Assembly (NCBI GenBank): GCA_003990765.1
Contig: RBNJ01000222.1
Coordinates: 1-36,388, forward strand
Reading direction: 5' to 3'
Source of the DNA: Jimgerdemannia flammicorona
Taxonomy: Eukaryota
Length of the DNA: 36,388 bases
In this document: one piece after another, positions 1 to 33,022 of the stretch
Layout of the letters: every line of letters begins with the position of its first letter
Position numbering within the stretch: the first letter of the stretch is position 1
Translations under genes and position numbers: made by a program
The notes under the pieces: generated by a model
What the model was told of the DNA's origin: nothing
Seen by the model: the letters and a program-made list of their open reading frames with translations, nothing else
Database searches by the model: none

Positions 1-106
1 TCCCAGCGACCCCCCTCCCCCACCAGCCGACGCCCAACACCCAATCTATCCCCTATCTCTGCCCAAAAATCCCCCAAGACCTCACACTCCCCCAGCCAAT
101 GTTCCG
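1..106 (-). mobile_element. 5'-truncated L1/Tx1-like LINE fragment (ORF2 C-terminal zinc-finger region), running off the window start
   Basis: Minus strand reads PEHWLGECEVLGDFWAEIGDRLG, matching PEHWLGECKVLGEFWRCIMDRLG of the LINE at about 36265-36330. Same G-rich sense strand. Abuts LTR sequence at about 115. Confidence 0.8.
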
Positions 107-302
107 GTCAAGAGATTGTCTAACTGCTGAGTCAGTTCACAGTCATGTCATATAAGGCTAATCTAACTATACTATGACTGCTAAGCTATCTATAGATTTA
201 GATACTGTCTAGGTAGTCTTTGATGACATCACCATCAATGACATCATCTCTGATAAAGTAGTTGTCTAAGAAGAGTTATTTGTGGATTAATTCTATATAT
301 TC

Positions 303-348
<46 letters not shown>

Positions 349-351
<3 letters not shown>

Positions 352-1337: not shown

Positions 1338-1486
1338 GTTTATATATATTCAAGAGTTGGGGTTGTGTATTTGGTTTGTTTTGGTTCTTTATTTTGATAT
1401 GTCTCAGTACTTGGTATACATATATGTATTTAGTCCTGATTGGTAAGATCTCATTTGTATAAATCTTATATTCTATAACTTTATAT

Positions 1487-1562
1487 TGACTCAGCTTTAT
1501 ATACTGTGACTTTGGTTTGACTCAGCTTTGTATGCTGTGACTTTAGTTTGACTCAGCTTTAT
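1487..1562. repeat. 31-bp tandem repeat, about 2.4 copies
   Basis: TTGACTCAGCTTT(A/G)TAT(A/G)CTGTGACTTT(G/A)GT repeated. Confidence 0.8.
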
Positions 1563-2086
1563 GATCTTACAGGTGATTTCTAGATTTGTTCAGAGGTTGC
1601 ATGTGATTTCAGTAGCTTGTTTTGAGGGTAATGTGTGATTTTAGTAGCTTGGAGGTTGTATGCTTACAGATTAGATAAAAATAGTTAATTACTATAGTAG
1701 TCTATTAGAAAAAAAAAAAAAACTTTAAAAATATTATACTTTAATTTATCTGATATTATATAACTCTATTATTACTATTAAATACATATAATAATTTTAG
1801 TTTTTATAAAAGAAAGTAATTAAGTTTTAAAAAGAGAGACTTTTTTTACTTAAATTATTTAAAAAGAGCTAAGTTATAAATATATTCTTTTATGAAAAGT
1901 AATATATTAAATAGTTTTTACTTTATCTACTTAAATATATTAGGTTCAGAATAAGTCTAGTATTTAGCCAATACTATTTTTATTTACTTTTACTTAGTTT
2001 TAGAGAAACAGTAAGCTAGGAATTAACTAGCTCAGAGAGATTAATAAGAAGAGGGCTAGAGATAAAACTTTCTAGAAATTATATAG

Positions 2087-3592
2087 TATAAGAGGGTTAC
2101 TTTTTAGGGTAACCATTATGTAGTTCTGGAAGAGTTTTCTAGAAGTTCTGGATATTCTAGAAGACTGTTTTCTTAAGATCAAGATCAATTTCATATGGAG
2201 TACATCCTCTATGCTTATTGATTTTAAGATCAGATTGACATCTCAACTAAAGTTCTTTTTTGGACTAGTTCTGGATGTTCAGGATTTTCCATATTTCAAG
2301 AAGTTTAAGAAACTAAGACCAGCTTAGTTGAATCAACATATTGCTGCAGAAAATACCCAATTAGGAAATTTCGTGATGGGGTTAGGAGTGGGACTTAATG
2401 GGGAGCAGATTTACTTAAAAGTAGTTTGTGGGTTATTAAATAGGTTTATTAACTATTCATAATATTACTATACTAAGAGTAGTTGTATGAAGGGATATTG
2501 TGGAAAAGTATTCAGGAGTTGTATTCAAATTGTTCAGGTCTGTAAGTCTGAGATTCTGAGGTCTGGGAGAGGGGATATTTATACTAGTGAGGGGCTATCT
2601 GGACTATGCTAAATATGGATATAGCACTTAGTGCCTTGCTGAGTCAGAATACAGTTATATAGTACAAGTTTAATCTGATATATTAAGAGATCATCTGACT
2701 GCTGAGTTAGTTCACAGTCACATCATATAAGGCTAATCTAACTATACTATGACTGCTAAGCTATTTATAGATCTAGATACTGTCTAGTTAGTCTTTGATG
2801 ACATTACTATTGATGACATCATTGCTAGCAAAGTCTGAGCAGTTTTCTGACTTCTGATATCATCAGTTTCCAAGGTATCATCACTTCTATCTCTTGCAAG
2901 ATTGAGACTGTTCTTGGTTGTAGTGGTTGCACAAGGTTAACAGGTCTTGGTTCTCTTTTTTTTTGATCTGCTGGTGCATTTGCAAGGACTGGCCATCCTT
3001 GTCTAGGGCGAGGGCTCCCAATGTCACAGCTGGAGGTTCAAATCTCTCAGAAATGATATTTTCTGTAATCCAAGGCAATTTCTAGTAGTTATATCTGTCA
3101 CATGGATAGCTTGAGATTGGTTTTGATGATGTTGGCTTTCTTGAGTTCAGATGAAGCATCCATCACTCTCTAATAAAGGTGACACAGATAGAGCAAATAG
3201 AGTTGTTCAAATGCATTTTGCTTCTACTAAGTAATGAGGTCTTGTATAGTTGCAGAGTATCCTGGTCTTGAGTTGATAAGTACAGTTCATGAACCTTTTG
3301 ATAGATGAGATAGAGTTCTTCTTATCTTGAATTGAGTTTGGTACTTCTGGTTTTCTTTGTAATATATAGTACAGTATACCAAACTAGTTATAGTGGTTCA
3401 GAGTTGGTCTTATGGTTGTAGTACTTCTTCTAGTATTCTTGTGTCTTAGCAGTGGGTTCTCATGCTTGCTGGCATATTTTGTATAACCAGATGATCTCTT
3501 CAGTAACTTGTTTTGTAGTCTCACATATGGTTTCCAAATTAGTTCTTAAGGATGATATGTGATTTTAGTGGCTTGGAGGTTGTGCACTTATA
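2087..3592 (-). repeat. 3' LTR, about 1.5 kb
   Basis: Reverse complement of 29173-30675 over its full length. TGTAAG..CTTACA termini decayed to TATAAG..CTTATA. PPT AGAAGGGGAGAG immediately upstream on the minus strand (3594-3605). Confidence 0.9.
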
Positions 3593-4018
3593 ACTCTCCC
3601 CTTCTTAGCTTTTGACATTCTCATCAGAGCCTTCTAATTTGTTCTAGTATTGTTATACCATTTGGAAGGTCAAAAGTCTAGTGAAGTCTATTTTTCTCAG
3701 AAAGTGGCATACTCATAGTACAGTTGCCTAATATATTGGATTTATATGTTAAAGGGTCATGTGTTCAATGCTATATACTAGAAGTGATTCTGACATTATT
3801 CACTACTGGAGAATTTCCTCTAAGGAATCTTCTTAAATGTCTATATCTCATTTCCCACCAGTGGTATAGGGAGAATAGACTTACTTTCAGTTTTGTTATT
3901 TTTCCAGAGGGTTGGTATTCTTTGTCTTGACTTGCTAAGTTCTTGATTTTTTGCTCATAATAATTATAATATTCAGGAGGGTAATATATAGTGTGTACTG
4001 ATAGGTATCAGATAGATT

Positions 4019-4594
4019 TTAGTTGTTCGAGAAATCATATTCCTGAACTAAGTCAGTAGTATTCTGGAGATTGGTCTTGGGTTCCCATGTTGTATTGTAG
4101 ATCAGGTAACATTTCTATTTAACAAGATACTCAGGGTGGTTCTTGTTGCCATGTTTATTGAGAATTTGTTCAACTTCATATTCTTCTTGATCATTAATTA
4201 TGATAGGTGCAGGTGGTTCAGTGGTTTGGTTTAGGAATAGCTCATCATTGTTTTCATTGTATCACTTGAGACATTGGACATTAAAGACTGAGTGGACCCT
4301 AATGGTGTCAGGTAGTACTAATTTGTAGGAAGTAGAAGAGACTTATGTAATGACTTCGAATGGTTCAATGAACTTACTGTTCAGCTTTATAGATGGTCTG
4401 TACTTGAGGTTGTCAACTCAGTATCCTCAGATATCCAGTAGAACTTTTTCTTCAATGTCAAAGGTTTCTTCTCAGTAGTGTTGGTTAATATATTGTGACT
4501 GTTATTCCTGAGCTCATAATAAATTCTCAATTGCAATTTGGCTTAGATTATGTATTTGGAGTAAGAATTCTTCAACAGCTTCGACTGTAGAGGG
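4019..4594 (-). pseudogene. Integrase C-terminus (GPF motif) plus chromodomain
   Basis: KLNSKFIEPFEVI (decayed GPF motif), then EEYEVEQILNKHGNKNHPEYLVK*KCYLIYNTTWEPKTNL at 4019-4186, a canonical chromodomain pattern. Confidence 0.88.
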
Positions 4595-4986
4595 TAGTGT
4601 TCCCAACGAATTGAATTGAATCAAATTTGGCCCAAACTCGATTTGATTCGATTGAATCAAGGGTCCAATTTGATTTGAAGTTTGATTTGAACCTTAATTT
4701 TCAAAATGTAATAACTCAACGAAAACTCATCCAAATTTAACATATTTTAGCTTGTTAGATTCACCGTATTAATGTGAATTCTAACAAGCTAAAGTACGTT
4801 AGATTTGGATGAGTTTACGCTGAGTTATTGCATTTTGAAAATTAGGGTTTGAATCAGACCCTCAATTTGATTCAACTTTTGATTCAATTTGAATTGATTT
4901 GAATTGAAAAATCCCCAATTCGATTCGACTCATTTAACTCTCAATTCGATTCAATTCGAATTGATTCAACTTTTTTGGGAGCACTA
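4595..4986. mobile_element. Non-autonomous hAT-like MITE, copy 1
   Basis: TIR TAGTG(T/C)TCCCAA / TTGGGAGCACTA. Subterminal 5-mer arrays (ATTCG/ATTTG). Central long inverted repeat. Flanks do not form a TSD. Confidence 0.8.
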
Positions 4987-4998
4987 TTGAGTTAATAA

Positions 4999-5381
4999 TA
5001 GTGCTCCCAATAAATTGAATCGAATTGAATTTGGCCCAAACTTGATTCGATTCAATTGAATCAAGGGTCCAATTCAATTCAATTCAAATCAAATCAAAGG
5101 TCCAATTTGATTTGAAGTTCGATTTGAACCTTAATTTTCAAAATATAATAACTTGATGAAAACTCATCCAAATTTAACATATTTTAGCTTATTAGATTCA
5201 CCATATTAATGTGATTCTAACAAGCTAAAGTACATTAGATTTGGATGAGTTTACGCTGAATTATTGCATTTTGAAAATTAGGGTTCAAATTAGACCCTCA
5301 ATTTGATTCAACTTTTGATTTGATTCAAATTGATTTGAATTGAAAAATCCCCAATTTGATTCAACTCATTTGGGAGCACTA
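4999..5381. mobile_element. Non-autonomous hAT-like MITE, copy 2
   Basis: Perfect 12-bp TIR TAGTGCTCCCAA. 8-bp TSD GTTAATAA (4991-4998) / GTTGATAA (5382-5389), one transition apart. An 8-bp TSD and YAGTG terminus are typical of hAT. Confidence 0.85.
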
Positions 5382-5698
5382 GTTGATAAGTACAGTTCAT
5401 GAACCTTTTGATGGATGAGATAGGGTTCTTCTTGTCTCAAATTGAGTTTAGTACTTCTGGTTTCCTTTGTAATAGTACAGTACACCAAACTAGTTATAGC
5501 AGTTTAGAGTTGGTCTTATAGTTGTAGTACTTCTTCTAGTATTCTTGTATCTTAGCAGTGGGTTCTCATACTTGCTGATGTATTTTGTATAACCAGATGA
5601 TCTCTTCAGTAACTTATTTTGTAGTCTTACATGTGGTTTCCAAATTAGTTCTTAAGGATGACATATGATTTTGGTGGCTTGGAGGTTGTATGCTTACA
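5382..5698 (-). repeat. Remnant (first about 317 bp) of the chromovirus 5' LTR
   Basis: Near-identical to 3272-3592; intact TGTAAG terminus. Confidence 0.9.
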
Positions 5699-5703
5699 TA
5701 TAG

Positions 5704-8221
5704 TAACTACTAATATTAGAGATATTAGAGAGAGTAGAGAGTTATAAAGAAAAATAAAAGATATTTACTGGAAATTAATAATAAATAGTAAGAGAAAGAA
5801 GAAAGATTATTAGATTTTTAATAAAAGATAGAAGAGATATAGTATTGATAAAGAAACAAAAATCTCAGAGATCAAAGATAAAGAGATATGACTGAAAATT
5901 CTAAAGCTGAGCAAATAGCTAAGAAATACTAAAATTAGTAAAAGTATAACTAGAGGTATGACTGATAGAGTAAATGAGAATGGAGAGAGAATAATACTAA
6001 CCATTAGATCTGAAGAAATAGTAGTGAGACTCTTTTTTTACAAGTTGGTATCTATGTAAGTAATCTTGGTAAATTTTCTAGATCTTAGTATATAATTGAT
6101 AAAAAGATAAAAGAAACTAAATCTTTGAAGTTTATTACCTTAGTAAAGACTGTAAATATTAGCTTTATAGAGAAAAATATAATAATAGTTATCTTGAAAA
6201 AAGAGTTACTAATCAAAAGTATTAAGGTAAAGATAATTAGATATCTGAGATAAGATCTGAGAACTATTAGACTAATGATGAAAGAAGTGCTGATCTTGAG
6301 AAGATAAGAGATAAAAGAGATAATTACTGAGACTCTGAAGCAGTATAGAGAGATATTAGATTTTGAATTTATATTTTAGAAGAATACTAAGTTATATAAT
6401 AGAATCTATAAAGCTATAGTGAGGCTAAAGAGATAGAAAGTAACTAGATTGAGAAGAGACTATATAACTAGAGTTCATTTATATTATAAAATAGAATTAT
6501 AAGATATAGTGATAGAAAATTCTAAACAGAAGGAAGATGAGCTAATAATAGTCTTAAAGAAGAGAGAAGCTATAAAAGTAATATATTAGAAGAAATAAGT
6601 GAGATTTTTAAAGAACTGAGTTTGAATTCAGACTAAAAACAGAAGAAAGAAAGTGAGAAAGATAGAATAAAAGAAATTATAAAAGATAATAGAGTATATA
6701 GTAATTGAGATAAAAAAAAAAAAGACTTATATAAAAAAGAGACTGAGATTTCTATTTTATACTTAAAGAAATTAAGAGTTTACAATATATACTGGTGAGA
6801 AGTAAGAGGCTGATAGTAAGAAAGAGTAGAGAGATAGTATTGAGAAAGAGCTAAAAATGATATTAGAAGAATATAAGAATAGTAAAAATAGTAAAAATAT
6901 AGTAAAGCTGTCTAAATATTAAAGAGATAGTAAAATCTATAAGAGTTGGTAGTAAAGAGAAGTTGTTGAAGGTTCAGTCTGATATATTTGAAGATAGAAA
7001 GATTTTTCAGAAGCTAATTAGGATTTCAAGACTATAGATACTAGTATTAAAAGAGATTATAAAGAAGAATTAATTTAAGCAAACTTTAAAGAAAATAGCT
7101 ATAGAGAATATCAGAGAGATAAATATATTTAATAGTTTATAAGAGAAGTGGAAAAACTTTTTAAATATTATATTCTAAGATCAAAACTAATAATAACAAT
7201 AGTGGTAGCAATTCTAGAGAATAAAAAGTATAAAATAGATATAATAAGAATAACTAAGATCAAAAAGATAGTAAGGAATTATATAACTAGTTCTATAAGA
7301 GTAAAAATAGAAAGTATATTTAGAAGACAGTCTGTAAGAAGAAGAGAGATATTATATTGATCAGAGTGGAGAAGATTGTAGAAAATATAAGTGTAATCTT
7401 TATTATTAACTTAATATTATAAAGAGACTATATATATTATTAATAAACTGAGAGATAGGATGAAGAGAAGATATCTGTTTATATAACTCAAAGTATAGTA
7501 ATATAATCTGATATTGATATAAGATATCAGAATATATAAAGAAAAAGACATTATAAAATATATAGAGTAAAAAGAGATTTTATAGCTCAGACTAGAATAA
7601 GTAGATAGAAATTTTGATAGAAGTAAAAAAAAAAAAAGAGCTAGAGAATATTGAATAGTGAGAGATAGATTGATATAAAGTAGATTGAAGAAAATAAACT
7701 AATAGTGGGTTTAATTTATCTTCTGATAGTAGTTAGAAAGCAAAAATAATAACTAAAAGATTAAAAGAAGTGAGATGATAGAGAGAATATAGAGTTGGAA
7801 AAAAACTTCAATATGATATATAATTAATATATATATATAGATAGGTCTATAGTGGGGCAGATGTTTCTATATTTCTGAGACTGGAGAGATAGCTATAAGT
7901 AAAAAGAAAGATAAAACTAATAGATAGTATTAGATAGAAGAGAAATAGAGAGAAAAGATCTTTTATAAGGTAGTACAGAGTAAGTTATAGCTTGATTGAA
8001 ATATATATTAATTGAGTATTAGTAAATAAATATTGAGAGAATATACTGAATATAGTTGAGATAAGATACATAATATTCTTAATTAGACTATTAGAGAGTA
8101 AAGATTAGTAAGAAGTTTAGAGTATTAAATATTGATAAAAACAGACAATAGTTAAATATTATTTTACTAGAAAGAAAAGTAATTTATAATAGAGACTAGA
8201 TATAAAGTAGGTAGATAGTAG
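5704..8221 (+). mobile_element. Heavily G>A-decayed L1/Tx1-like LINE relic (ORF1 plus endonuclease region); continues at about 14914-15200
   Basis: ETLKQYRDI (about 6330) resembles ORF1 EAIKEYGEI. AAA AAC TTC AAT ATG (about 7801) matches GDFNM, followed by RLDW-, SDH- and WxLN-like remnants in the expected order. Purine-rich sense strand. Boundaries approximate. Confidence 0.55.
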
Positions 8222-8689
8222 TGTAATGGTACAGCCAAATTTGGAAGAAGGAAATAGGGAATAGATACTTGATCACACCCAGTCCCAAAGTAATATAGCC
8301 TTATAGTTAGCAGTCCTCGATTTCGATATTGTCTAAATTCTTAGACATTGTCTAAATTTTTAGACATTATCCAAATCGAATGTCCTGATTTAGTATAGCA
8401 TTTAGATATTGTCCAAATATTTTGACAAAGTCCAAATGACTCATTTATTACTTAGCCACCCTTGCATAGCTAGCAAACTTGTATAAATAACCCAGTATCT
8501 TGGAGTGAATAAACCTCAGATCGAAAGTATTAGAAAAAGAACAAGTATACCAATAAAAGGACCTTCGGGATTACTTCTTTAAAAACACATTTGGCCTCAA
8601 GGAACTACTGACTCTGGGAGTCAAGAAGACAAAAATTCAAGATAAAGAAATCTGATGTACTTACCCATCTTAGTGTCCACTACATTACA
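8222..8689 (+). repeat. 5' LTR (468 bp)
   Basis: TGTAATG...CATTACA termini; direct repeat of 14447-14913; contains TATAAATA and AATAAA. Confidence 0.97.
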
Positions 8690-8692
8690 ACT

Positions 8693-8709
8693 TGGTGCCC
8701 ATTGGCTGG
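8693..8709 (+). promoter_or_regulatory. Primer binding site TGGTGCCCATTGGCTGG
   Basis: Starts with TGG 3 nt after the LTR; decayed version at 23193 in the second copy. Cognate tRNA not determined. Confidence 0.75.
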
Positions 8710-8794
8710 TGATTCAAGATGAATCCCTCACTTTCAAGCTGAACAATGAACAACCGTAACAAGAACCCACACAACACAATCAGACAAAATAGAT

Positions 8795-11700
8795 ATGAGA
8801 CCACCTGTATTTCATGGATACACCTCTGATGAATCAATCATCACCTTCATCGACGATTTCAAGCAATATACTGCCATAAGGACCTTAAGTATAGCACAAC
8901 AAGTAGCCCTACTCTCTGTAAGCCTCAGAGGCCCAGCAAGAACTGCATTTACTATAGCCAATATTGTGGGAAATGACAATCCAGCAAGACTCCTAGCTTT
9001 CAAGGCCTGGCTCCAAGCAACCTATTATACAGATGAAATCAAACAAGCATTCAAGGATCAACTAAATACTATCTGCCAAGGAATGTCTGAAGACCCAAAC
9101 ACATTCTACACAAGAATCCGACATCAAATAGTCCTTGCTGACTACCCTGATGCAGTTCAAGACCAAGTGGCTGAGAATACCTTCATGAAAGGCATTCATC
9201 AAGAAATTGCTTTAGCTATCTGATCTACTCCAATGGTGCTGGACCTGGGCCAGAAGGTTACCTATGCCCAAAGATACTGGACTACCAGACACCCTCAAGG
9301 CCATACAATGGAAAGAATAACAGGAGTAAAAATTGAACAAGTACCAAGGGTCACCAATATAGTCCCAGCTATCATAGTCAACTGAAATACTCAACGATAA
9401 TCACAAGAACAGAGAAGGGTTGACCCAATGGAGGAATTGGCCAAACAGTTTGCAGAAATGACTGCACACCTCAGTGACATAGTCAAAGAGTTCAAGAAGA
9501 AGCCAGTATAGAAGTTTGCTGCTACAAATGCAAGATGATCAATAACATGCTACAACTGTGGAGAAGAAGACCACTATGCCTCCGAATGCATGACAGAAAC
9601 CAAGCGAAAAGCCAATCCAAGCAATGCAACCAGAAACCGTGAGCAGGCAAACACTATCACCTTCAAGGAGATTGGAGAATCTGAGGAAGAGAGGGAGGAA
9701 TGGGAAGCTTACCCTGCCACCTCAAGCAAGAAGGATGTCTGATCCAGTCCCTACAAAAGATCTCCAGGCAGACCCCCTAAGAAGGCCCAGACACAAACAA
9801 GATAACCAGAAACAGTCATCAAAAAAGAGAACCAGCAGAGCGAAGCTGATCAAGATATGGAGCTGGAACAAGATGCTGAACTTGAACAAGTGGTAGAAGA
9901 TATCATTAGAAACACCACCCCATCAAGTGAAGGGAGGAAGGAGCAGAAATTGCACAAGAGCAAGACCTTTAAATATGATATCTTCAAGGACCTCAAGGAC
10001 CAAAAAGTCAATGCAACCTTTGGCCAACTAGCAGAAATCCCAATCTTCAGACAACAAATAAGGACAGGAATCTCAGATATTGGCAAAGACCAAGGTTGGA
10101 AAATAATTGAAGCCAATAATGCACAAGAAGATTCAGATGAAGAGAGTGAAGATAATTGGAAAACATCAGCCTATGCTATCTGCCAGATCGAGGATCGAGT
10201 CTTCAAAGCCATTATTGATATGGGAGTAGGAGGATGTCTCATCACCAAGAAAGCAGTAGACTGCCTAGGCTGGGAGATAGAAGAAGCCACCAAACTGGTA
10301 TTTGTCACAGCTGATGGAACATGAGCAACACCCTTGGGAAAGATCTGAGATGTACCAATCAAGTTCAGAGAGGCCACTATCCCTGTGAATGTCATTATCA
10401 TCAATGCAACCAACTATGATATCCTCATCGGCAATCAATAGCTTCATAAAGCCAAGGCAATAATTGACCTCAGTGCACAGAAGATGCAGATCGTCTACTA
10501 GGGAAAGAAGATTAGAATTCCCATCAATGTCTACAAAGGAGTCCACCCCGAGATAGAGGAAGACCAAGAAGAAGAAGTCTACATAGTTACTATAAAGAAA
10601 GGAAAAGGCAAGCAATTGACAGAGGAAGAATGGTATATAAGAATCACAGATGGATATGCCCTACTAGGAAGGTGCCCCCATGGTGAAAGAATGTACTGTG
10701 CCCAGCACTTGGGTCACTGCTACTCTTGTATCATTGAGGTAAAGAAGATCACCAACAAGCCAAAGAAGAACCAGGAGGAACTAGAAGATGGACCACCAGA
10801 GTTATTGGATGACAGTGATGATGAGGATGAAGATATCATAGTCAAGATATGAAGGATTCACCCTGATGCAGTCATACCACAGTACAAGTCGGAGAATGCA
10901 GCTGGAATAGACCTATCTACTACTATATACACAATACTCGAACCACAGACTACTACCATTCTAGGAACAGGAATTGAAGTAACCATCCTACCAAACCATG
11001 TCGGAATCCTCAAGACAAGGAGTAGCCTGGCGAAAAGCAAAATATCTATAGAAGGAGGAGTCATCGATTTGGATTATACTGGAGAAATCCTTCTCCTTAC
11101 TAGAAACCACAACCCAACAATCCCATTTGAAGTAAGGAAGAAGGATCGGCTGGCACAAATGCTCATCCTATCTGTCCTTAATCCAAGAATCAAGGAGGTC
11201 ACAAACATCAGACAAACTCAGCAAGAGAGAGCTGGATTTAGCTCTACCGGAAGAGGAGTCCTCACAGCAACTAAGATCACCGAATTGAAGCACAAGAAGG
11301 AGGAAAGCCAAGACAAACACACCTACACAATCGGAAGAAACTTCCCCCTCAGGGTAGAATTGCAGAGCCTCTTGTATACATTCGAAGATATACTGGCCAC
11401 AGATTTCAAGGACATCAAGACCAAGAAACCCTTGTATTATCATGATGTCAATACTGGAGATACAAAGCCAATCTATCAGAAGGCCTGCCCCATTCCACCA
11501 GCATACAGAGAATGGCTCAAGACAGAGATCAAGGAAATGGAGGAATCTGGTATCATTAAAGAAGCCAGCAGCCCTTGGTCCTCCCCTATTGTCCTTGTAC
11601 CAAAGAAAGGAAGCCAACCAGGAGAATTTACACCAAGACTCTGCACAGACTATAGAAGACTCAATGAGGTCACAGAGAAGGACAGACAACCATTGCTAAA

Positions 11701-12757
11701 CATTGGCGATATCCTTATCATGCTGGGGAATGAATCATGATTCTACACTACCCTGGATCTATTCTCAGAATTCTACCAAATCAGCCTTACACATGAAGCC
11801 AGCAAAAGATCAGCCTTCATCACCCCCGATGGAACCTATGTCTATCTCTACATGCCCTTTGGAATGTGCAATGTACCAGCAAGCTTCTAGCAAATGATGA
11901 ACAGTATCTTCAGAGATATTATGGAAAAATGGATGATGGTATATATAGATGATATGATCATCTTCAGCTGAACAGCCAAGGAGCACTTGGAACATATTGA
12001 GGAAATCCTCAGAAGGCTTCACAAACATGGCCTCTACATCAAGCCCAAGAAATGCAAGTTCGGAGAAGAAGAGATTGCATACCTCAGACACATTATCAAT
12101 CATGAAGGAACACACACAGACCCCACAAAGATCAAAGCAGTAGCAGCATACCCAGTACCTACCAGCATCATGGAAGCCCAAGCCTTTATGGGACTTACAT
12201 CCTACTACAGAAGATTTATTAGAAGATTCTCCCACATCGCCAGCCCTATCTATGATCTGTTTAGAAAAGAGGTTAAGTTCCAGTGGACTCAGCAGCAGCA
12301 ACTAGCCTTTGATGAGCTCAAGACCAGATTGACCCAGGCCCTAATCTTGAGAAGACCTGACTGGACTCAGGAGTTTATTCTGCAAACAGATGCCAGAGCA
12401 ATGAGACTTGGAGCTGTCCTTGCACAAAAGAAAAATGATGCCAAATACATGGTAGCCTATCTCAGCCGAGGTACTCATGGGGCAGAGCAGTCCTATGAGT
12501 CTTATAAGCTGGAATGCCTTGCAGTCATCTGGGCTGTAGAAAAGTTCCACTACTACCTGGCTGGAAGACACTTCACCATCTAGACAGACCACTCAGCACT
12601 CACCTAGTTGCTCACTACCAGTGAGCCCAAAGGAATCTATGCCCAATGGATTGTGAAGCTACAAGCATATGATGCCACGATCACCCACCGCCCTGGAAGA
12701 ACCAATGCCAATGCTGATGCCCTCTCATGGATACCCCAAAGGACCCCACCACCATAA
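8795..12757 (+). pseudogene. gag-pol: Gag-PR-dUTPase-RT-RNaseH polyprotein, single frame with internal stops
   Basis: ORF pieces at 8795, 9857, 10616, 11069 and 11987 share one frame. Zinc knuckle CYNCGEEDHYASEC (9548-9589). Protease IIDMG (10217; decayed DTG). RT SPWSSPIVLVPKK, DYRRLN, YIDD (11942-11953). RNase H ILQTDA, LECLAV, NADALS. Ends at TAA 12755-12757. Confidence 0.93.
10838..11251 (+). pseudogene. dut: Trimeric-type dUTPase domain between protease and RT
   Basis: All five motifs in order: AGIDL, RSSLA, GVIDLDYTGEI, DRLAQ, RAGFSSTG. Confidence 0.93.
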
Positions 12758-12764
12758 AATCACC

Positions 12765-13958
12765 ATGAATAAGGAGCTGTACTATGGAATCATCAGCTAC
12801 CTGGGGCAGTGAAAGATGCCCCCGCATCTGGAAGAATGGACAAAAACAATTATTAATCAGACATGGAAACAATTTGAAACTAATGGAGAAATACTCAAGA
12901 AAGAACAACAATTAGTCATCCCCGAGCACCAGAAGAATCAAGTAATGAAAGAAGTACATAAACAGGGTCACATAGAAGGAACAAATACATATGACAAAGC
13001 AAGAAGAACCATGTGGTGGCCCAGAATGGAAGAAGATATCAGACAATTTGTCAGAACCTGTGACAAATGCCAGAAATAGAAACAAGACCGATGGGATCAA
13101 GCCTCTGGATCAGCAGACATCAAACCAATACTATTTGCCCACATTGCAATAGATGTAATTGGCCCTCTACCCCTGACATTGACTGGCAACCAATATGTCA
13201 TTGTAATAGTGGATCTATTTACAAAATGGGTAGAGGCTGGACCCCTCAAGGAAGCCAATGCACAGTCAATTGCTGATTTTTTTCATAGAGAAATCATCTG
13301 CTGATTCAAGACCCCAAAGCAAGTTACTACAGACAGAGGAACAGAATTCGTCAACCAGTTCCATGAGGTTCTTTACAAGAAGTACAAGATTCAATACATC
13401 AAGACCACAGTCTATCACCCACAAGGAAACAGACAAGCAGAAAGAACCAACAAGACCCTCAAGAACATCATTGCCAAGATCTGTGATGAATATGGAAACT
13501 GGGACCACTATCTACCAATAGCATTATCTACTCTGCAGGATATATGATTATAAAGCACCCATTTTACACCACGAGAAATGCTATTTGGTGAAGAAGGTTC
13601 CAGTGGAAGTTTGTCAGCAGGTAATAATGCAATCTGGAAGCATGTGGATACAGAGATATGGAGATTGCATCAAATTAGGAAAAAGGCAGAGGATTACATA
13701 ATCAAGGCACAGGCACTATAATGGAACAATGTAAAAAAAACCCACAAGCCCCTAGAGATTATCAAGATAGGAGATGAAGTCCTAGTATATTGGAATATGG
13801 TAGAAGCTTCTTGGTCACGAAAACTGGAGCCCAAGTGGGAAGGACCTTATCTGGTACAAGATATAAAAGGGACTACTTTCTGGCTATGAAAGCCCTCAGG
13901 CACAATAATCCCCACTACCATTCATCGAAACTGACTCAAGAAGTACCATGGCCAATAA
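12765..13958 (+). pseudogene. int: Integrase encoded as its own ORF (HHCC, DDE, GPY; no chromodomain)
   Basis: ATG 7 nt after the pol stop, in a different frame. HKQGH..CDKC, IDVIGPL, TDRGTEF, AERTN, KLEPKWEGPY. Ends at TAA 13956-13958. Confidence 0.9.
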
Positions 13959-14409
13959 CCAAAGCACTGTGATAGCACTCAAGATCACTAGTGCTACCCA
14001 AAGAGCCATTGAAAGACAATGGCACACCACCGAGCCTCCGACCATAGAGGCATACTATGAGGATATTCAGAGTATTGTACAGACTCATCTCTCTTAGATC
14101 TTGCACTTTAGAGCCTATCAATATCAGGCAGAATTCCAAGAGTACTTCAAGCTTGGACAGGTGCTCAATCAGGATCCAGCAAAGACCAAAGAGGACTGGA
14201 TTGCCAAGTGTCAACTCTCCCACTCACAGATCACTATTGCCAAAAGAATCTACAAGTTATTCCGAGAAGATGAACTAGCAATAGACTACCTGAGAGGGGT
14301 AACCCCCACCGACTTCGAGAAAGTGAGAAGACATCATTGGGAGACAGTCATGCAGCAAATTGCACAATATAAGACCATACAGATGGTTGAAGCCTGGGAG
14401 TTTGAATAG
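13948..14409 (+). pseudogene. Accessory ORF3, 153 aa, unknown function (one internal stop)
   Basis: MANNQSTVIALKITS...EYFKLGQVL...IAKRIYKLF...EAWEFE*. Overlaps the integrase end by 11 nt. Equal-length homolog at 28527-28988. Confidence 0.8.
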
Positions 14410-14446
14410 ATGCCTCAGAGATGAGACCATCTATTCAGGAGGAAGT

Positions 14447-14913
14447 TGTGACGGTATAGCCAAATTTGGAAGAAGGAAATAGGGAATAGATACTTGATCG
14501 TACCCAGTTCCAAAGTAGTATAGCCTTATAGTTAGCAGTCCTCGATTTTGACATTGTCTAAATTCTTAGACATTGTCTAAATTTTTAGACATTATCCAAA
14601 TCGAACATCCTGATTTAATATAGCATTTAGACATTGTCCAAATATTTTGACAAGTCCAAATGACTCATTTATTACTTAGCCACCCTCGCATAGCTAGCAA
14701 ACTTGTATAAATAACCCAGTATCTTGGTGTGAATAAACCTCAGATCGAAAGTGTTAGAAAAAGAACAAGTATACTAATAAAAGGACCTTCAGGATTACCT
14801 CTTTAAAAACACATTTGGCCTTAAGGAACTACTGACTCTGGGAGTCAAGGAGACAAGAATTCAAGATAAAGAAATCCAATGTACTTGCCCATCTTAGCGT
14901 CTGCTATGTTACA
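14447..14913 (+). repeat. 3' LTR (467 bp), preceded by PPT AGGAGGAAG
   Basis: TGTGACG...TGTTACA termini; direct repeat of 8222-8689. Confidence 0.97.
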
Positions 14914-17489: not shown

Positions 17490-18430
17490 TGATCTTTTAA
17501 GAAGATCTAACTAAACTTAAGAATTCATCCTTCAGACTGATATATATAAGTTTAGTTAGATTAGATAGAGTCTTTATATAAAAAAAAACATATCTCTATC
17601 AAGGAACCTGTAGAGAAGAAAGAAGTATAAATTCTATAAGTTAGAGTATCTTATAGTCATTTGGACTATAGAAAATTTTACTACTACCTTGCAGAAAGAT
17701 ACTTCACTATCCTGATAGACTATTTGGCCCTTACTTAGTTAATGACTATAACTAAACTCAAAAGAATATTTATCATATAATTATAAAGCTATATATAAGC
17801 TTATAATATAATTATTATATACTATTTAAAAAGAACTAATACTAATACTAATCCTCTTTTATAGATATCTTAAAGAATCTACAACTAGTAAAAAAAAAAA
17901 AAATATGAATAAGAAACTTTACTATAGAATTATCACCTATCTGAGATAGCAAAAGATGTTCTAATATCTGGAAGAATAAATATAAATAATTATTTATAAA
18001 ACTTAATTTTTTTTTAAAACTAATAGAGAAATACTAAAGAAAGAAAAGCTACTAGTTATATCTGAATATAAAAAGGAATAAGAAATGAAATTATATATAA
18101 ACTTAATTATTTAGAAGGAATAAATATCTATAATAAAGTAAAAACAATAATATAGTAGTTAGAAATAGAGGAAGATATTAGATAATTTATCAAAATCTGT
18201 GATAAATATTAGAAATAGAAGTAAGATTAGTAAAATCAGACTCCAGGATCAGCAGACATAGACCTAGTACTATTTGTCTGTATTATAATAAATATAATTA
18301 GTTTCTTATCTATAATATTAACTGATAATTAATATATATATCATCATTATCATAGATCTTTTTACAAAATAAATAAAAGCAGAACTTCTCAAAAAGTCAA
18401 TGCATAGTTAATTACTGATTTCTTTTACAG
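17490..18430 (+). pseudogene. Decayed fragment (RNase H to integrase N-terminal half) of a third dUTPase-Gypsy relative
   Basis: EFILQTD (17521), YYLAERYFTI, ATG AAT AAG AAA CTT TAC (17905). Collinear with about 12340-13290. Confidence 0.85.
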
Positions 18431-18928
18431 CAGAGAAGGAAGAAGGCCCAGCGAGAGCCAAGGGAGTGAACCCAGAGCCAGTGTCAAAGTGAACGGAAGA
18501 CATATAGAAAGATATATATAAGGGGGATGAATAAAGAATGTAACTGAAAATGCATAAGCCATTTATTGCCATGTAAAAATGCAGTCCTTATATATAAAAT
18601 ATAATATCCCAAAAGGGAGAATGTACCACAACTCAGAGTGAACTGAATTAGGAACCACATGACCACTGGAGATAGGCGGAGATAAAGGGAGAGCCAATCC
18701 CAGTTATAGGATAAAAATCACAAACAAACATAAATAAAACAAATCTAAATCGAGATTAAAAAACACCCATCTATCCTGGAAGGGTGAGCATGAGTGATGA
18801 GTGAGGCCGAAATGGAGCGAGCCACAGTGAGCCTGAGCGAAGTGAGGGGCTGAAGGCAGTGGAGGGGAGTGGAGTAAGGCCAAGACCTCAGAGTAAGCAC
18901 GAGACCCTGGAGGGAGCAAGGATGTTTT

Positions 18929-20804: not shown

Positions 20805-22034
20805 TTAAGAGTAGGAGACCTTCCTCTTCTCTCTGACTTTTTTTGAAGGCGGTGAACCCAATGAACAGAAGTATACCCCATCAGAGTACCAGATCTTGCG
20901 GCCACAGGCTTTCGTACAGCCCTTATATTTAGGGGCACAGGTGGAGGAGGCGGAGGAGAAACCAGTAGAGGAGGCCAAAGGTGAGCAAGCAGCCAAAGGA
21001 GCAGCAGCATGAGGAACACCATCATGAGGACAGACAGACTTGGCCGGGTGCCAGTAGGCACAGTGGAGGCAACCAGAGTAGACAGCACAAGGCCAGGCCC
21101 TGACAGGGTGAGAACCAAGTTGGCGGCCATGCTTGGGGGCAGGGGAAATGGAGGAGAAAGCCTTGGTGAGGGAGGGAGACCAAGAAGAGGCCGACAAAGC
21201 CTGGTTGGGCTTGGCAGGGGTCTTGGCAGGGGTCTTGGAGGGGGCCTTGGCAGCAGTAGTGGCAAAGGAATAAACCTCAGCACAAGTAGCAGCACAAGCT
21301 TTGGCACAAATGGCCTCAGAGACCAAAACCTCGGGGAAGGTAGACAGGGGAGCAGTGGTGGCAGCATGAGCAGCAGTAGCAGTATATGACATCTCCTACT
21401 CATGAAGGCAAGCAATAAAAGAGGTGCTGGCAAGGAGAAAATGATGCACAGTATCAATGTTGGCAGTGACAGAAGAAACGTCTTGGATAGTAAAGCCACA
21501 GAAGGGGGCAGCATCTGAAAGGTAAGAGGAGGCAAAGGCCATGAAGACAGTACAGATATGGTAGAAGGAGGCAGAAGCAGTAGCAGCAGAAGTAGCAGCA
21601 GCATCAGCAGTGGTAAGCTTGGTGGTGGCAGTGGCAGTATGAATCTCTTCAGAGAGAGCTTGGCAGTAGACCTTGGGGAGAATGGAGTAGCAGACAGCAG
21701 ATGGAGCAATGATGTTGACATCACAGCAGAGACGAGCCTCCTTAGCAGAGAGGGCAAGAACTGACTGGAACTGAGAGAGGAGTAGATGACCAGAGAGACA
21801 AAGGTCCAGGGGGAGGGAAAGGATGGCAGATGAGATATAGGTCTTGAATGAGATAGTGGTGGAGGTGAAGGCAGGGGGAGGAGGAGGAGAAAGAGCCTCA
21901 TCTATGAGCTCATCAATGAGGACAGAGGCTCTGAGGGCAGATGGTACAGCAGAGGAGGAAGAAGGCCCAGCAGGAGCCAAGGGAGCGAACCCAGAGCCAG
22001 TGTCAAAGTGAACAGAAGACATGTGGAAAGGCAT
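20805..22034 (-). pseudogene. PLE ORF1, about 409 aa, Ala/Ser/Pro-rich with Cys/His clusters (one internal stop)
   Basis: ORFs 21396-22034 and 20805-21392 are in one frame. Starts within the pLTR. Motifs CLHCAYWHPAKSVCPH and CTKACGRKIWYSDGVYFC; basic C-terminus. Confidence 0.6.
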
Positions 22035-22775
22035 GTATAAGGAGGATGAATAAAGAATATAACCAAAAATGCATCAGCCATTTATTGCCATGTAAAAACG
22101 CAGTCCTTATATACAAAATACGACATCTCAAAAGAGAGGACATGCCACAACTTGGGGCGAACCGAATTAGGAACCACATGACTACTGGAGATAGGCAGAG
22201 ATAAAGGAGGAGCCAATCTCAGTTGCAGGATAAAAATCACAAATAAACACAAACAAAACAAATCCAAATTGAGATTAAAAAACATCCTTGCCCCCTCTGG
22301 AGTCTCACACTTGCTCTGGGGTCTCGGCCTTACTCTGCTCCCCTCTGCTGTCTTCAGCCCCTTGCTTTGCTTAGACTCACTGCAGCTTGCTCTGTTTCGG
22401 CCTCATCCCTCACTCGCGCTCACCCCTCTGGGGTCTGTGGATGTTTTTTAATCTTGATTTGGATTTGTTTTGTTTGTATTTGTTTGTGATTTTTATCCTA
22501 CAACTGGGATTGGCTCCCCCTTTATCTCCACCTATCTCCAGCAGTCATGTGGTTCCTAATTCAGTTTGCCCCAAGTTATAGTGCATCCTCTCTTTTGGGA
22601 TGTTGTATTTTGTATATAAGGACTGCATTTTTATGTGGCAATAAATGGCTGATGCATTTTCAGTTACATTTTTTATTCATCCCCCTTATATATACCTTTC
22701 CACATATCTTCTGTTTGCTTTGATACTGGCTCTGGGTTCGCTCCCTTGGCTCCTGCTGGGTCTTCTTCCTCTTCT

Positions 22776-25092
22776 TACAAATAGCAGTTATTTCACAAAT
22801 GTTAAAGTTTTGATAAATATTAATATTTTTACAAATATTGAGATTTTATAGATATTAAATCTTAATAATTATTAAAGATTTAACAGATATCAAGAATTAA
22901 TACTTGTAAAAAATGACTTACAGGAAATATAGTTATAACTTAGTCTCATATTTAGTAGCTAAATTAGTATACAAATTTGTATAAATATCTCCAGTATCTA
23001 GAGTGAATAAACCTCAGATCAAAATAGTTTAAAGTAAAGAGAAAGTAAGAAAACTAGTAAGTCTGTAGGCAGATATACTTTAAACTTACCCACCCCTATA
23101 TTCTGAGGACTCTGCAGAGTCAAAGAAGATCAAGTTTTCAAGAGATAGAATTCAACATACTTATACAGTTATATGTCTGTTATATTACAACTTAGTATCT
23201 ATTAGCTGGTAATTTAAGTCAAATTCCTCACTTTTAAGCTAAACAACAAACAACTACTACTATCTGAATAACTATACAAATCAAACCAAAATATCTAGAC
23301 AAGATAGATATGAGACTACTAGTATTCTACAGATATACTTTAGATAAATCAATCATCATCTTCATTAATGATTTTAAGCAATATACTACTATAAGAACTC
23401 TGACAGTAAAGCAGCAAGTAGCCCTCATACCTTTCAGTCTCTAAGGTCTAGCAAGAGCAGTATTCATAGCTGTAACCTATAAAGAAAATAATAACAATGT
23501 TGTACTAATAGTATAGAAGACCAGGCTTAGAGCTACCTACTATACAGATGAGATCAAGTAAGCTCTGAAGAATCAGCTCAATATAATATATCAAGGAATG
23601 AGTGAGAATTCAAACACATTCTATACTAGAATTTAATATTAGATAATCCTTATAGATTATGATGCTGCAATCTGAGATCAAGTAGCTGAGGCAACCTTTA
23701 TAAAGAGAGTCTACTTAGAAATAGCTATAGCCATCTAGCATCACTAGTAGTTCTGGACCTGACATAGAAGATCATCTATGCTTAGTGATACTGAATAGCC
23801 AGACATCTACAAGACTATATAATAAAAAGAGTCACTAGAGTTAGAATTGAAGTCTCTAAGATAACTAGTATAATCTCTACCATAGTGATCAATTGAAATA
23901 CATCTCAACTAAGAGCTATTGAGTAGTAAAGAAACAGTGACCCTATAGAGAAACTAGCTAAGAAGTTCACTAAAATGACTACTTATGTAAGAGATATGGT
24001 AAAAGAAATCAGAGGAAGAGATTACTATCCAGTTCAGAAGTTTGCTATTATCTTAGACAAAAAGAGAAGTATCTGCTATACTTGTGAAGAAGAAGGCCAC
24101 TACTTATATGAATATATAAGTAAAATCAAGTATAAGATATACTACTTGAAATAGAGAACAGACCAATACCATTATCTTTGAAGAAATTAGAGAATCTAAT
24201 AAAGAAGAATGAGAGGCCTACTCTATATAGATCACTAAGAAGGATGTTCATAAAGAACTCTACAAGAGATCATCAGGGAGACCCAATAAGAACTTAGTAA
24301 AAAAATAAATAGAAATTATCACAGAAAACCAAGCTAAAGAAATAAATCTAAATATGGAGTTTGAGAAAGCAGTTTAAGATATTATCTGAGAAACTACTCT
24401 AGTTCCAGTTAGTGAAGGAGAAAAGAAAAGGAAGCTTTGCAAAATCAAGACTTTTAAGTATGATATCTTCAAGGATCTTAGTCAATAAAAAGTCAATGCA
24501 ATCTTTGGCCAGCTGGTGGAAATCTTCACATTTAGATAGTAAATAAGATATAGACTTGCTGAGATAACTAATATCAACAATATTTAAGAAAACTCAGAAG
24601 ATGAAAGTGAAGATAATTACAAGACCTCTGCCTATATAATTTATCAAATTGAAGATAGAATCTTCAAGACCATCATTAATACTAGAGCAAGAGGATGCCT
24701 TCTCAGTAAGAAGGCAGCAGACTATCTAAGTTGAGAGGTTAAAGAAGCAACTAAGTTAGTATTTGTCACAGCAGATAGTATAAGAGCCACACCTCTAGAA
24801 AAGATCCAAGATATTTCCATCAAGTTTAAGAAGTAACCATCCTAGGTGATGTCATTATAATCAATACAACCAACTATGACATCCTTATTAGTAACTAATA
24901 ACTTCATAAAGCTAGTGTAATAATCAATCTGAATGCCCAAAAGATGCAGATTATCTACTAAAGATAGAAGATATAGATTTCCATCATATCAACAAAAAAG
25001 TACTCTCTGAAATAAAGAAAGAAGAAAGTGAATAAGAAGAAGCCTATATTATATGGGATAGATGGGTGTAATAAAGGACGAGTTTAAGTGAC

Positions 25093-25153
<61 letters not shown>

Positions 25154-28100
25154 AGCCTATATAGTGACCACTCAGAAAAAGAAGAAGAAAGTTGGATGGA
25201 TCAGTGAAGAGAACTGGTGCAAGAGGATTATTGAAGGATATATATCATAAGGAGTCTGCTCTTATAGAATTAAGATATATTATATGAAGTATGTCAATGA
25301 TTACTATCAGTATACTAGCAGAATCAAGAAGATCTATTATAAAAGAAAACAGAAGACTCTTGAGAAATAGACAAGAGAAGAGAAGGAGGAGGAAGAGAAT
25401 GATGAACCATCAGTCCTTCTGGAAGACAGTAATGATGAAGAGAAGATCAAGATCAAGATTCAGAAAATCTACTCTGATATAGTCCTATCAGAATACAAGT
25501 TAGAGAATATAGCTAGAATAGATATTACTACAGTAGAAGAAACTATACTTGAGCCCTAGACAACTATTCTATTTATAACTGATCTGGAGATAACTATTCT
25601 AAAAGACTATATTAGAATCATTAAGATAAGAAGCAGCCTGACCAAGAGTGAGATTACTATTGAAGGAGAAGTCATCAATTTGAATTACATATATCAGAGA
25701 AATACTACTCATTGCTAGAAACTACAACTCTATGATTTCATTCTAATCAAAAGGAAGAACTGACTAGTACAGATGTTAATCTTCTTAGTTCTTCAGCCAA
25801 AGTTCATAAAAGTTAAGAAGTTAGAGAAAATAGAGAGAAAAAGGAAGAAATTCAGATCTATAAGAAGAGGAGTATTCATCAGTACTAAGCTCATCAAACT
25901 AGATCATAAGAAAGAGGAAACTACAAATAAGCATAGCTATATTATTAAAAATGAATTCTCACTTAAGAAGAAATTCAAGAAGATACTTTATAAATTCAAG
26001 GATATTCTAGCTATAGATTTCAAGAACATTAAAGAAAAGACCCCACATTACTATCATGATATAGATATAGGGGACACTGAACCAATCTACTAAAAAGCAA
26101 GACCAATTCTACTAGCCTTCTGCAAATAGCTTAGAGAAGAAATCAAGCAGATGGAAGATGTCAATATTATCAAAGAAAATAGCAGTCCTTAGACTTTACT
26201 AGTTATACTAGCTCTGAAGAAAGAAAGCAAACTAGGAGAATTTGCTCCAAGGCTCTATACTGATTATAGGAAGCTCAATCTAGCTATCAAGAAGGACTAT
26301 TAATTACTACTCCTTATCAGTGATATCCTTATAACTCTGAGAGATAAAGTATAGTATTACAGTATTTTAGATTTATATTTAGAATTCTATCAAATCAGCC
26401 TCACAGAAGTAGCAAGTGATAAGTCAGCCTTTATCACTTCAGATAGAACTTATGTCTATCTATAAATGTCATTTAGAATGTATAATATATCAATAAGCTT
26501 CTAGTGAATGATGAACAAAATCTTCTGCTATGATATGGAAAGATGGGTGGTGGTTTATATAGATGATTTTATTATCTACAGTAAAATAGCTAAAGAATAT
26601 CTATAGTATATCTAGCAGATGATGGAGAAGCTAAGGAAGTATAGCCTATATATCAAGTCCAAGAAGTGTAAGTTTGTAGAAATCAAGATCTCTTACCTTA
26701 GTCATATTATTAACTAAGATAGAACACATACAGACACTCTCAAGATTCAAGCAGTAGCAGTATATCTAAAGTCCACCACTGTCACTAAAGCCCAAGTCTT
26801 TATGAGACTCACCTTATACTACTGCAGATTTATCAAAGAATTCTCCAATATTACAGATCTAATCTATGAATTCAATAAGAAGAATATCAAGTTCTAATAG
26901 ACTGACAGATAATAAAAAGTATTCAATGAACTCAAGATCAGATTGACCCAAGCACCTATCTTCAGAAGACCTGATTGGACTCAAGAATTCATTCTGTAGA
27001 CAGATACAAGTATATAAAAACTAGGAGTAGTTCTGGTCCAGAAGAAAGACAAAGTAGAGTATATCATTAGCTGAGAAATCTGAGGAGTCAAAAAAGAATA
27101 TAAATTCCATAAGTTAAAATGTTTTGCAGTTATCTGAGCTATAGAAAAGTTTCACTACTACTTCACTGAAATTTGCTTCACTATTCAGACAGACTATTCA
27201 GTTCTTACCTAACTACTGACTACTAGGCAAACCAAAGAAATCTATACCAGATAGATTATAAAGTTATAGGCCTATGATATAACCATTGTGCACTACTCTG
27301 GAAGAACTAATACTAATACAGATGCTCTCTTACAGATACTCTAAAGAACTCTCAACCTATAAATCAACAATGAATAAGGAGCTTTATTACAGAATTATCA
27401 CTTATCTGGGATAGCAAAAGATGCCCCAATATCTGAAAGAATGGATACAAATAATTATTAACAAAATATGAAAATAATTCAAAACTAATAGAAAATATTA
27501 AAGAAAGGAAAACTATTAGTCATATCTAAGTATAAGAAGAAGCAAGTAATGAAATCAGTATATGAACTTAGCTATCTAGAAGAAATAAATACTTATAAAA
27601 AAGCAAGAAGAACAATGTAGTAGCCAGGAATAAAGGAAGATATCAGATGATTTGTCAAGACCTATGATAAATATCAAAAATAGAAATAATATCAACAAAA
27701 TCAGACTCTAGAATTAGTATAAATAGAATCAGTATCTTTTGCCTATATAGCAATATAATTAGTCCTCTATCCTTGACTTTGACTGGCAACTGATACATCA
27801 TTATTATTGTAGACCTTTTTATAAAATAAATAGAGACAGAATCTCTCAAAGAAGCCAATATACAGTTAATTGCTAATTTATTCTACAAAGAAATCATCTG
27901 CTGATTCAAGACCCTATTATAGGTAACTATAGACAGAGGAATAGAATTTGTAAACCAGTTCATTAAGATTCTCTATAAGAAGTACAAGATTCAGCATATT
28001 CTATTATCTTTAAGAAAATGGATAAGCAGAAAGAATCAATAAGATCTTTAAGAATATTATTACCAAGATTTACAATAACTATGAAAACTGAGACCACTAT

Positions 28101-32991: not shown

Positions 32992-33022
32992 GCTGAGGTC
33001 TCTTCTACAATATCTATTCAAT

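Follow-up and report, generated by a model that had tools for sequence, protein, structure and literature searches.

The stretch of DNA analysed here, referred to as the window, comprises 36,388 nt of the forward strand of contig RBNJ01000222.1 from Jimgerdemannia flammicorona (assembly GCA_003990765.1). It contains a 6.7-kb Ty3/Gypsy retrotransposon (8222–14913, plus strand; copy 1), which bears a dUTPase and no chromodomain. Between the integrase gene of this element and its polypurine tract (PPT) lies a further reading frame of 462 nt, ORF3 (13948–14409, plus strand). We put at about 0.8 the probability that ORF3 is the third cistron of this long terminal repeat (LTR) retrotransposon and stands for an unnamed family of accessory proteins under selection in live elements.

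Copy 1 has the order LTR; gag–protease–dUTPase–reverse transcriptase–RNase H; integrase; ORF3; PPT; LTR, with all features on the plus strand. As read from the sequence, the ends of the 5' LTR (8222–8689) are TGTAATGG...TTACA. This LTR is repeated directly at 14447–14913, and the two members of the pair are 93–94% identical (93.4% over 468 nt). The tetranucleotide GTAG stands on both sides of the element and is a possible 4-bp target-site duplication. ORF1 (8795–12772) encodes gag with a CCHC motif, protease, dUTPase, reverse transcriptase and RNase H in a single frame, as judged from its translation and from Pfam matches to L001, a 6479-nt metagenome contig with a near-intact version of this element, whose ORF3 is intact and occupies the matching place and frame. 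In L001, ORF1 matches zf-CCHC, aspartyl protease, dUTPase (2.9e-28), RVT_1 and RT_RNaseH, and ORF2 matches Integrase_H2C2 and rve and no other family; the Chromo model gave no match to the L001 integrase at E ≤ 0.001. The PPT, AGGAGGAAG (14437–14445), directly precedes the 3' LTR of copy 1, and L001 also has this motif ahead of its LTR.

The integrase cistron, ORF2 (12765–13958; Pfam on L001), is in the +1 frame with respect to ORF1, and its ATG overlaps the ORF1 stop at 12765–12772 (ATGAATAA; 4612–4619 in L001). This junction is free of indels in copy 1, in L001 and in a second, diverged copy of the element in the window (copy 2, 23150–29100). An integrase that forms its own +1-frame cistron, with an ATG overlapping the preceding stop, is unusual for a Ty3/Gypsy layout. 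Copy 1 itself is dead, with 17, 8 and 1 internal in-frame stops in ORF1, ORF2 and ORF3, respectively, compared to 1, 1 and 0 in L001. We looked by eye for a splice donor in the leader of copy 1 and saw none that was convincing. The pentanucleotide CTGAC upstream of the ORF3 ATG was considered as a branch point and dropped, L001 having CCGAC instead. Besides the two copies, the window holds a lone integrase fragment of the copy 1 family (17794–18290), 69–76% identical to 12756–13151 and 27265–27755.

ORF3 begins at an ATG in the context ACCATGG, in the +1 frame relative to integrase, whose stop lies at 13956–13958, and comprises 153 codons plus a stop. An earlier note on this DNA, made from the sequence alone, had described a 462-nt open frame between integrase and the PPT. 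Length and position are as it said, but the frame is not open: it is a pseudogene here, with a TAG at codon 50 (14095–14097), where intact relatives have R, Q or W, and its longest open stretch (14101–14409) spans 102 codons. The note had also pointed to a diverged copy of equal length at 28527–28988 (plus strand), and our analysis agrees. That frame, the ORF3 of copy 2, matches the hidden Markov model (HMM) of the family with E 6.5e-33, aligns to the ORF3 of copy 1 without gaps (73/153 residues identical, E 7e-45) and ends in EAWEFK where copy 1 ends in EAWEFE; it carries 17 in-frame stops. Across copy 2, C>T or G>A account for 773 of the 1366 private changes, and 217 of the 403 C>T changes are at CA, CA>TA being the commonest context. 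This spectrum is like that of repeat-induced point mutation (RIP).

The placement of ORF3 after integrase, in the +1 frame and with its own ATG, holds for copy 1, copy 2 and L001, and the ACCATGG around the start is unchanged in copy 1 and L001. No RNA data set was listed among sequencing runs with matches; contigs of unknown kind from three sequencing runs of one study gave small shares (0.06–0.07). At 85% likeness, the same runs yielded 912–1189 contigs per run over all 30 bins, a result uninformative on expression, and the summed depth of contig coverage was lower across 14046–14269.

Relatives of ORF3 exist well beyond the window. A word-indexed search with ORF3 gave 10 candidates, including seven relatives at E ≤ 0.01. 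The best of these, P0003, is an intact 'hypothetical protein' of 153 aa, 79% identical over its full length (E 2.9e-74); P0011 is another intact member of 153 aa, and the intact relatives come from environmental assemblies. The family HMM recovers the ORF3 of copy 1 with E 7.5e-51. An exhaustive HMMER search of 1.84 billion representatives returned five matches at E ≤ 0.001, among them P0019 (165 aa, 7.3e-05); a match to P0020 (455 aa, with repeats, E 3.4e-04) was set aside as a likely chance match. Searching from P0019 gave 11 proteins including itself, that is, 10 further relatives of 94–168 aa. Some proteins in the clusters of these relatives are encoded on contigs as long as 7980 nt, and the contigs of P0026 and P0038 measure 7.8–8.0 kb. 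When the branch that these proteins form was compared with the window ORF3 by tblastn, 10 of 11 matched (2.8e-10 to 4.8e-05).

The family has one branch with P0003 and P0021 and another (branch 2) with P0019 and P0026, linked by the profile match of 7.3e-05. Branch 2 proteins have ~167 aa and an acidic, Trp-bearing tail, and at 17–21% identity to the ORF3 of L001 they keep length and motifs. Residues E62, F63, Q64, R100, L104 and F105 are invariant in an alignment of 19 ORF3 sequences, and these core residues (EFQ; R...LF) are present in copy 1 of the window. No relative was seen in viral contigs scanned with the family alignment and P0026, and literature searches found no description of the family. 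These data establish ORF3 as a genuine, conserved gene family divided into two deep branches, with its position after integrase seen in copy 1, copy 2 and L001.

To gauge selection, we compared copy 1 with L001 and expressed the result as the ratio of the proportions of nonsynonymous and synonymous differences (pN/pS). For ORF3, pN is 0.197 and pS 0.815, giving a ratio of 0.24 that, with synonymous sites saturated (pS > 0.75), is only an upper-bound style of estimate. Because of this saturation, the true ratio is probably lower. Differences fall at codon positions 1, 2 and 3 in the numbers 32, 27 and 87. Read in either of the other frames, this DNA gives ratios of 1.11 and 1.33, with 8–9 stops per frame. 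From gag to integrase, the ratios are 0.09–0.18. When ORF3 was divided into four segments, each gave 0.18–0.27, with codons 1–30 at 0.18. The earlier note had proposed a dN/dS measurement of this kind, and the value obtained is not near 1. ORF3 is under purifying selection and is kept in live elements.

In principle, conservation of this DNA might have nothing to do with coding: it could reflect a cis-acting RNA or DNA element close to the PPT, the open frame being incidental. ORF3 adjoins the PPT and 3' LTR, where cis elements are expected. However, the excess of third-position differences, the fact that the other frames contain stops and have ratios exceeding 1, the intactness of the frame in independent assemblies, and the retention of length and motifs in branch 2 at 17–21% identity all speak for a protein, and we regard a purely cis-acting role as very improbable.

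A rival that grants a protein has ORF3 extending integrase at its C-terminus through +1 frameshifting close to the integrase stop and standing in the chromodomain's place. ORF3 is in the +1 frame of integrase, just as integrase is in the +1 frame of ORF1; both copy 1 junctions read xAA-TAA (GAA TAA G and CAA TAA C); no stop interrupts the ORF3 frame over the 17 codons before its ATG; and the absence of a chromodomain from the copy 1-type element, judged by Pfam on L001, would fit an extension of this kind. On the other hand, the ORF3 ATG is kept in ACCATGG, and Met occupies the first alignment column in both deep branches and in a third, decayed member described below. Codons 1–30 are under purifying selection in their own right. 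Moreover, the integrase stop of L001 lies 16 codons into ORF3, and a frameshift there would skip the conserved N-terminus. No longer, fused relatives occur among 92 candidates, although this is weak evidence. Collectively, these observations make the extension improbable, and they favour a cistron that would be translated from its own AUG rather than through a frameshift fusion.

What kind of protein ORF3 encodes is less clear-cut. Members match no Pfam family at or above the cut-off, and sequence-profile searches of the PDB gave unrelated enzymes as best hits (E 0.13 and 0.36). No characterised domain, which the earlier note would have taken as a refutation, was found. The Pfam model HTH_Tnp_Mu_2 matches the N-terminal part of 2/12 members below the cut-off (E 0.031 and 0.11). 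The Chromo model gives no match to ORF3 members at E ≤ 10, whereas it does detect a neighbouring chromovirus remnant in the window. In the ESM Atlas, P0003 led only to unnamed clusters and P0026 to no usable match. The note's view that the protein has no signal peptide or transmembrane stretch and is not env-like agrees with our data: three intact relatives have no membrane span (maximum Kyte–Doolittle mean over 19 residues, 0.19–0.74), and no env family is found among the Pfam matches of ORF3 members. The proteins have isoelectric points of 4.7–8.8, and the branch 2 tail has a net charge of –7 (~–4 per 20 residues). ORF3 products appear to be soluble proteins of 150–170 aa, predicted at low confidence to be all-helical; the note had called them small, soluble and helical, and it is the last of these properties that depends on low-confidence models.

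Several observations weigh against the reading we favour, namely that of ORF3 as a selected accessory cistron. Synonymous saturation, as mentioned, limits the estimate of selection. The two AF2 models obtained, both all-helical, are poor, with mean predicted local distance difference test (pLDDT) scores of 56.3 and 59.2. Fold searches with these low-confidence models, a check that the earlier note had suggested with Foldseek, returned nothing over noise; the best values were Z 6.5 and 6.4 in VIA, whose first list spanned residues 1–60 only, and E 0.91 and 3.2 in Foldseek. TetR, TrpR, MarR and similar folds appear at Z 3.6–4.3, within noise, and a helix-turn-helix reading of the core, made by eye and from such low-ranked rows, does not rise above chance. 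DNA binders are not usually neutral to acidic, as these proteins are. Simple stop–restart coupling of ORF3 to integrase does not fit all copies, because the integrase frame of L001 continues ~50 nt beyond the ORF3 ATG. Finally, the division of ORF3 sequences into two types, A and B, which bears on the exchange discussed below, is soft.

The earlier note had further paired ORF3 with a frame at 349–1337, which lies on the minus strand (1337–349) and which the note placed inside the LTR of another family, and had proposed that two different Gypsy lineages share the protein. As quoted, the motif match does not hold up. The 20-residue core has 6 identities and the second, upstream motif 2/9, and at least 6 identities are reached by 25 of the 16,282 twenty-residue windows in 1–8200, so the quoted match alone is at chance level. 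Plain tests of this frame against ORF3 were negative (hhalign probability 0.33%; BLASTP E 15; hmmsearch –3.0 bits, E 0.61). The frame contains 15 stops, and it exceeds the part that proved homologous.

Given the RIP-like decay seen in copy 2, we turned to decay-aware scoring, in which each T may have been C and each A may have been G, and the pre-mutation forms of the codons are scored against the profile. Under this scheme, the frame at 1337–349 scores 115.2, compared to 66.5 ± 5.6 for 300 codon shuffles (z 8.7, Gumbel p 2.5e-5). Across five scoring settings z was 8.7–12 (10–12 under the harsher ones), and the reversed profile gave z 0.0. Among 624 windows covering both strands and all frames, this frame ranks first, and the runner-up (z 4.9) is close to the expected maximum for that number of windows. 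In a strictly local version it comes third, after the two true copies, with 43.1 compared to a noise maximum of 29.6. The aligned part (870–1337, minus strand), which we call ORF-X, starts at its own ATG (1337) and spans profile positions 1–158. At 22 of its 155 aligned codons ORF-X agrees with the consensus, and reversal would bring a further 19 into agreement; LF is kept, and undoing RIP-type changes can restore other core positions. ORF-X resembles branch 2 (z 6.1) more closely than branch 1 (z 2.7).

Might this kinship be an artefact of permissive scoring in AT-rich DNA? The method is home-made and inflates every score (the null mean is 66 bits), the plain methods are blind to the likeness, and significance is limited to the middle third of the profile, the three thirds alone giving z –0.8, 9.6 and 1.1. 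Yet the signal persists under all five settings and vanishes with the reversed profile, and among the windows compared ORF-X ranks first or, in the local version, directly after the two true copies. The best local hits of the thirds lie on diagonals 0, –2 and –2, a collinearity seen in 0/250 shuffles, and the alignment starts at the frame's own ATG. In addition, the plain hmmsearch match, itself at noise level, falls on the same stretch (~897–1109). An artefact seems to us quite unlikely, and we accept 1337–870 (minus strand) as a strongly decayed relative of ORF3, with a small measure of doubt. The note's claim of kinship is thus upheld by the decay-aware test, although it fails by the plain profile–profile comparison that the note itself had set as its criterion.

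The setting of ORF-X differs from that described. It starts ~750 nt beyond the end of the chromovirus LTR and so lies outside it. A one-query decay-aware search for an integrase upstream of ORF-X gave z ≤ 1.7 (control, z 49.5), and no integrase signal there bears out a second Gypsy lineage; the miss is weak evidence, since a distant chromovirus SH3 domain scored only z 2.8. The window ends 870 nt beyond ORF-X. Poly(A) runs of ~40–55 nt occur at 307–347, just past the ORF-X frame, and at 25096–25150, inside copy 2.

We also asked how ORF3 compares with the rest of the element. In a sliding comparison of copy 1 with L001, nucleotide identity stays at ~90% through integrase and is ~65% from the ORF3 start onward, the drop being measured at 13950–14410 of the window versus 5795–6253 of L001, in elements otherwise 85–90% identical. 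Values of pS are 0.81 for ORF3 and 0.29 for integrase, and the non-coding LTR is 78.7% identical. Because ORF3, a sequence under selection, is more diverged than the adjoining LTR, and because pS differs so much between ORF3 and integrase, the pattern is best explained by recombination that would have introduced an ORF3 whose divergence is older. The known ORF3s fall loosely into one group with copy 1, P0003, P0011 and P0004 and another with L001, P0015, P0007 and copy 2, and the window holds both. Positions 1–40 of L001 contain the final 12 codons of another ORF3, of the first group, followed by a PPT and an LTR; this arrangement reflects either two elements sharing or abutting one LTR, or an assembly join of two copies.

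The earlier note had proposed that the protein moves between retrotransposons. The identity break at the ORF3 start fits exchange between sub-lineages; the part of the proposal that involved a second lineage is not borne out here. A broader version would have ORF3 as a portable cassette, moved by recombination among unrelated Gypsy lineages and lodged after integrase in some and near or inside LTRs in others, that encodes a Tas-like transactivator or export factor within a tri-cistronic, overlap-coupled layout that has a stand-alone integrase and is unusual for Metaviridae. Taken as a whole, we consider this version doubtful.

How might such a cistron work? Each later cistron lies in the +1 frame of its predecessor, with its own ATG at the predecessor's end, and in the scheme that we favour the ORF3 module would have been swapped between sub-lineages by recombination. 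The helical core may bind to nucleic acid or to a protein of the element, with the acidic, aromatic tail serving to recruit host machinery. In live elements, ORF3 could then regulate the element's own expression, much as Tas, Tax or CERV does. The three members in the window are all dead, copy 1 having one TAG, copy 2 17 stops, and the third being decayed beyond plain recognition. Some retroviruses encode a transactivator in the interval from pol/env to the 3' LTR, as foamy viruses do with Tas/Bel1. By analogy only, ORF3 resembles such proteins as a small accessory protein of the 3' end with a putative nucleic-acid-binding part and an acidic, possibly activating tail. Our best, still tentative, guess at function is that ORF3 acts in trans, as a small regulator with an acidic tail, on expression of the element; it draws on the position at the 3' end, the separate AUG, and the combination of a predicted helical core with an acidic aromatic tail.

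A different function can be imagined from the same features. ORF3 might be a cofactor of integration or packaging that binds the stand-alone integrase and directs it to the particle or to a chromatin target, replacing the chromodomain. It directly follows a chromodomain-less integrase that is its own cistron, and Trp-containing acidic tails commonly serve as docking motifs for proteins. Against such a cofactor stands the third member, upstream of which no integrase is detectable, and we hold this role to be unlikely, less so than the frameshift extension. What remains after a regulator and an integrase cofactor would be roles in anti-defence or assembly.

Several known systems bear some likeness to the copy 1-type element. 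Some fungal Gypsy elements are drawn with an 'add. ORF' of unknown function, and in PosPlaTy3-5 a dUTPase lies between protease and reverse transcriptase (Novikova et al. 2010, PMC2864245). These are likewise fungal Ty3/Gypsy elements, some with an extra ORF and PosPlaTy3-5 with a dUTPase. In the text of that paper the 'add. ORF' is described without sequence or family, so the likeness is one of description only; moreover, the elements described there bear a chromodomain, whereas the copy 1-type element does not. LTR retrotransposons of bdelloid rotifers carry ORF3s other than env, of types common to unrelated retroelements (Rodriguez, Kenefick and Arkhipova 2017, PMC5408684). They share with our element a third ORF after pol, an encoded dUTPase and modular exchange. 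However, the bdelloid ORF3s described in that source are env-like, GDSL esterases or DEDDy exonucleases; the present family matches none of these and, unlike them, has no enzymatic or membrane signature.

Sun et al. (2023, PMC10309623) showed that CERV, encoded by the Gypsy-type element Cer1 of C. elegans, is a nuclear regulator on which genomic RNA depends for its export. Like ORF3, it is described as a protein at the env position that is not env and has no homologues outside its host group. It differs in having 517 residues and a spliced mRNA, with the ORF covering the C-terminal half only, and the comparison with ORF3 again goes by description. For the role guessed here for ORF3, CERV would be the best functional analogue.

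The chromovirus remnant next to ORF-X belongs to a different Gypsy element. Its integrase C-terminus (4034–4399, minus strand), read as a minus-strand frame with X at stops, matches SH3_Tf2-1 and Chromo in Pfam (2.5e-12 and 1.2e-07). A PPT, AAGAAGGGGAGAG (~3606–3594, minus strand), whose motif is common to three copies, is followed by a 3' LTR of ~1.5 kb (TGTAAG...CTTACA; ~3592 to 2087, minus strand) delimited by comparison of copies, the end CTTACA at ~2087 being where likeness to the copy at 29172–30673 stops. Other copies or fragments of this LTR lie at 29172–30673 (plus strand) and 5706–5383 (minus strand); the first of these splits the 3' LTR of copy 2 at ~29168. Elsewhere in the window, 31063–36388 is GC-rich (52–58%) with a strong G skew and contains a reverse transcriptase ORF like that of a long interspersed nuclear element (34100–35416; RVT_1, 3.5e-24), upstream of which is a Gly/Glu-rich ORF of 642 aa with no Pfam match. 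Direct repeats at 18426–18725 and 21945–22244, 87% identical and 3.5 kb apart, flank GC-rich DNA whose minus-strand frames are rich in proline and serine, and this pair may be another LTR element.

Taken alone, the window offers modest biology, since all three copies of ORF3 in it are dead. It does illustrate that plain homology tests miss members wrecked by RIP-like mutation, which decay-aware profile alignment can recover. Extra ORFs at the env position are common in LTR retrotransposons, and almost none has a known role, CERV being a rare exception. The ORF3 protein is small, is clearly under selection, occurs in at least two deep branches, seems to be exchanged among sub-lineages of the element and accompanies an integrase that is a separate cistron, and these properties make the family tractable for study. 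It provides a concrete protein for tests of how retrotransposons in fungi control their own activity or deal with the defences of their hosts.

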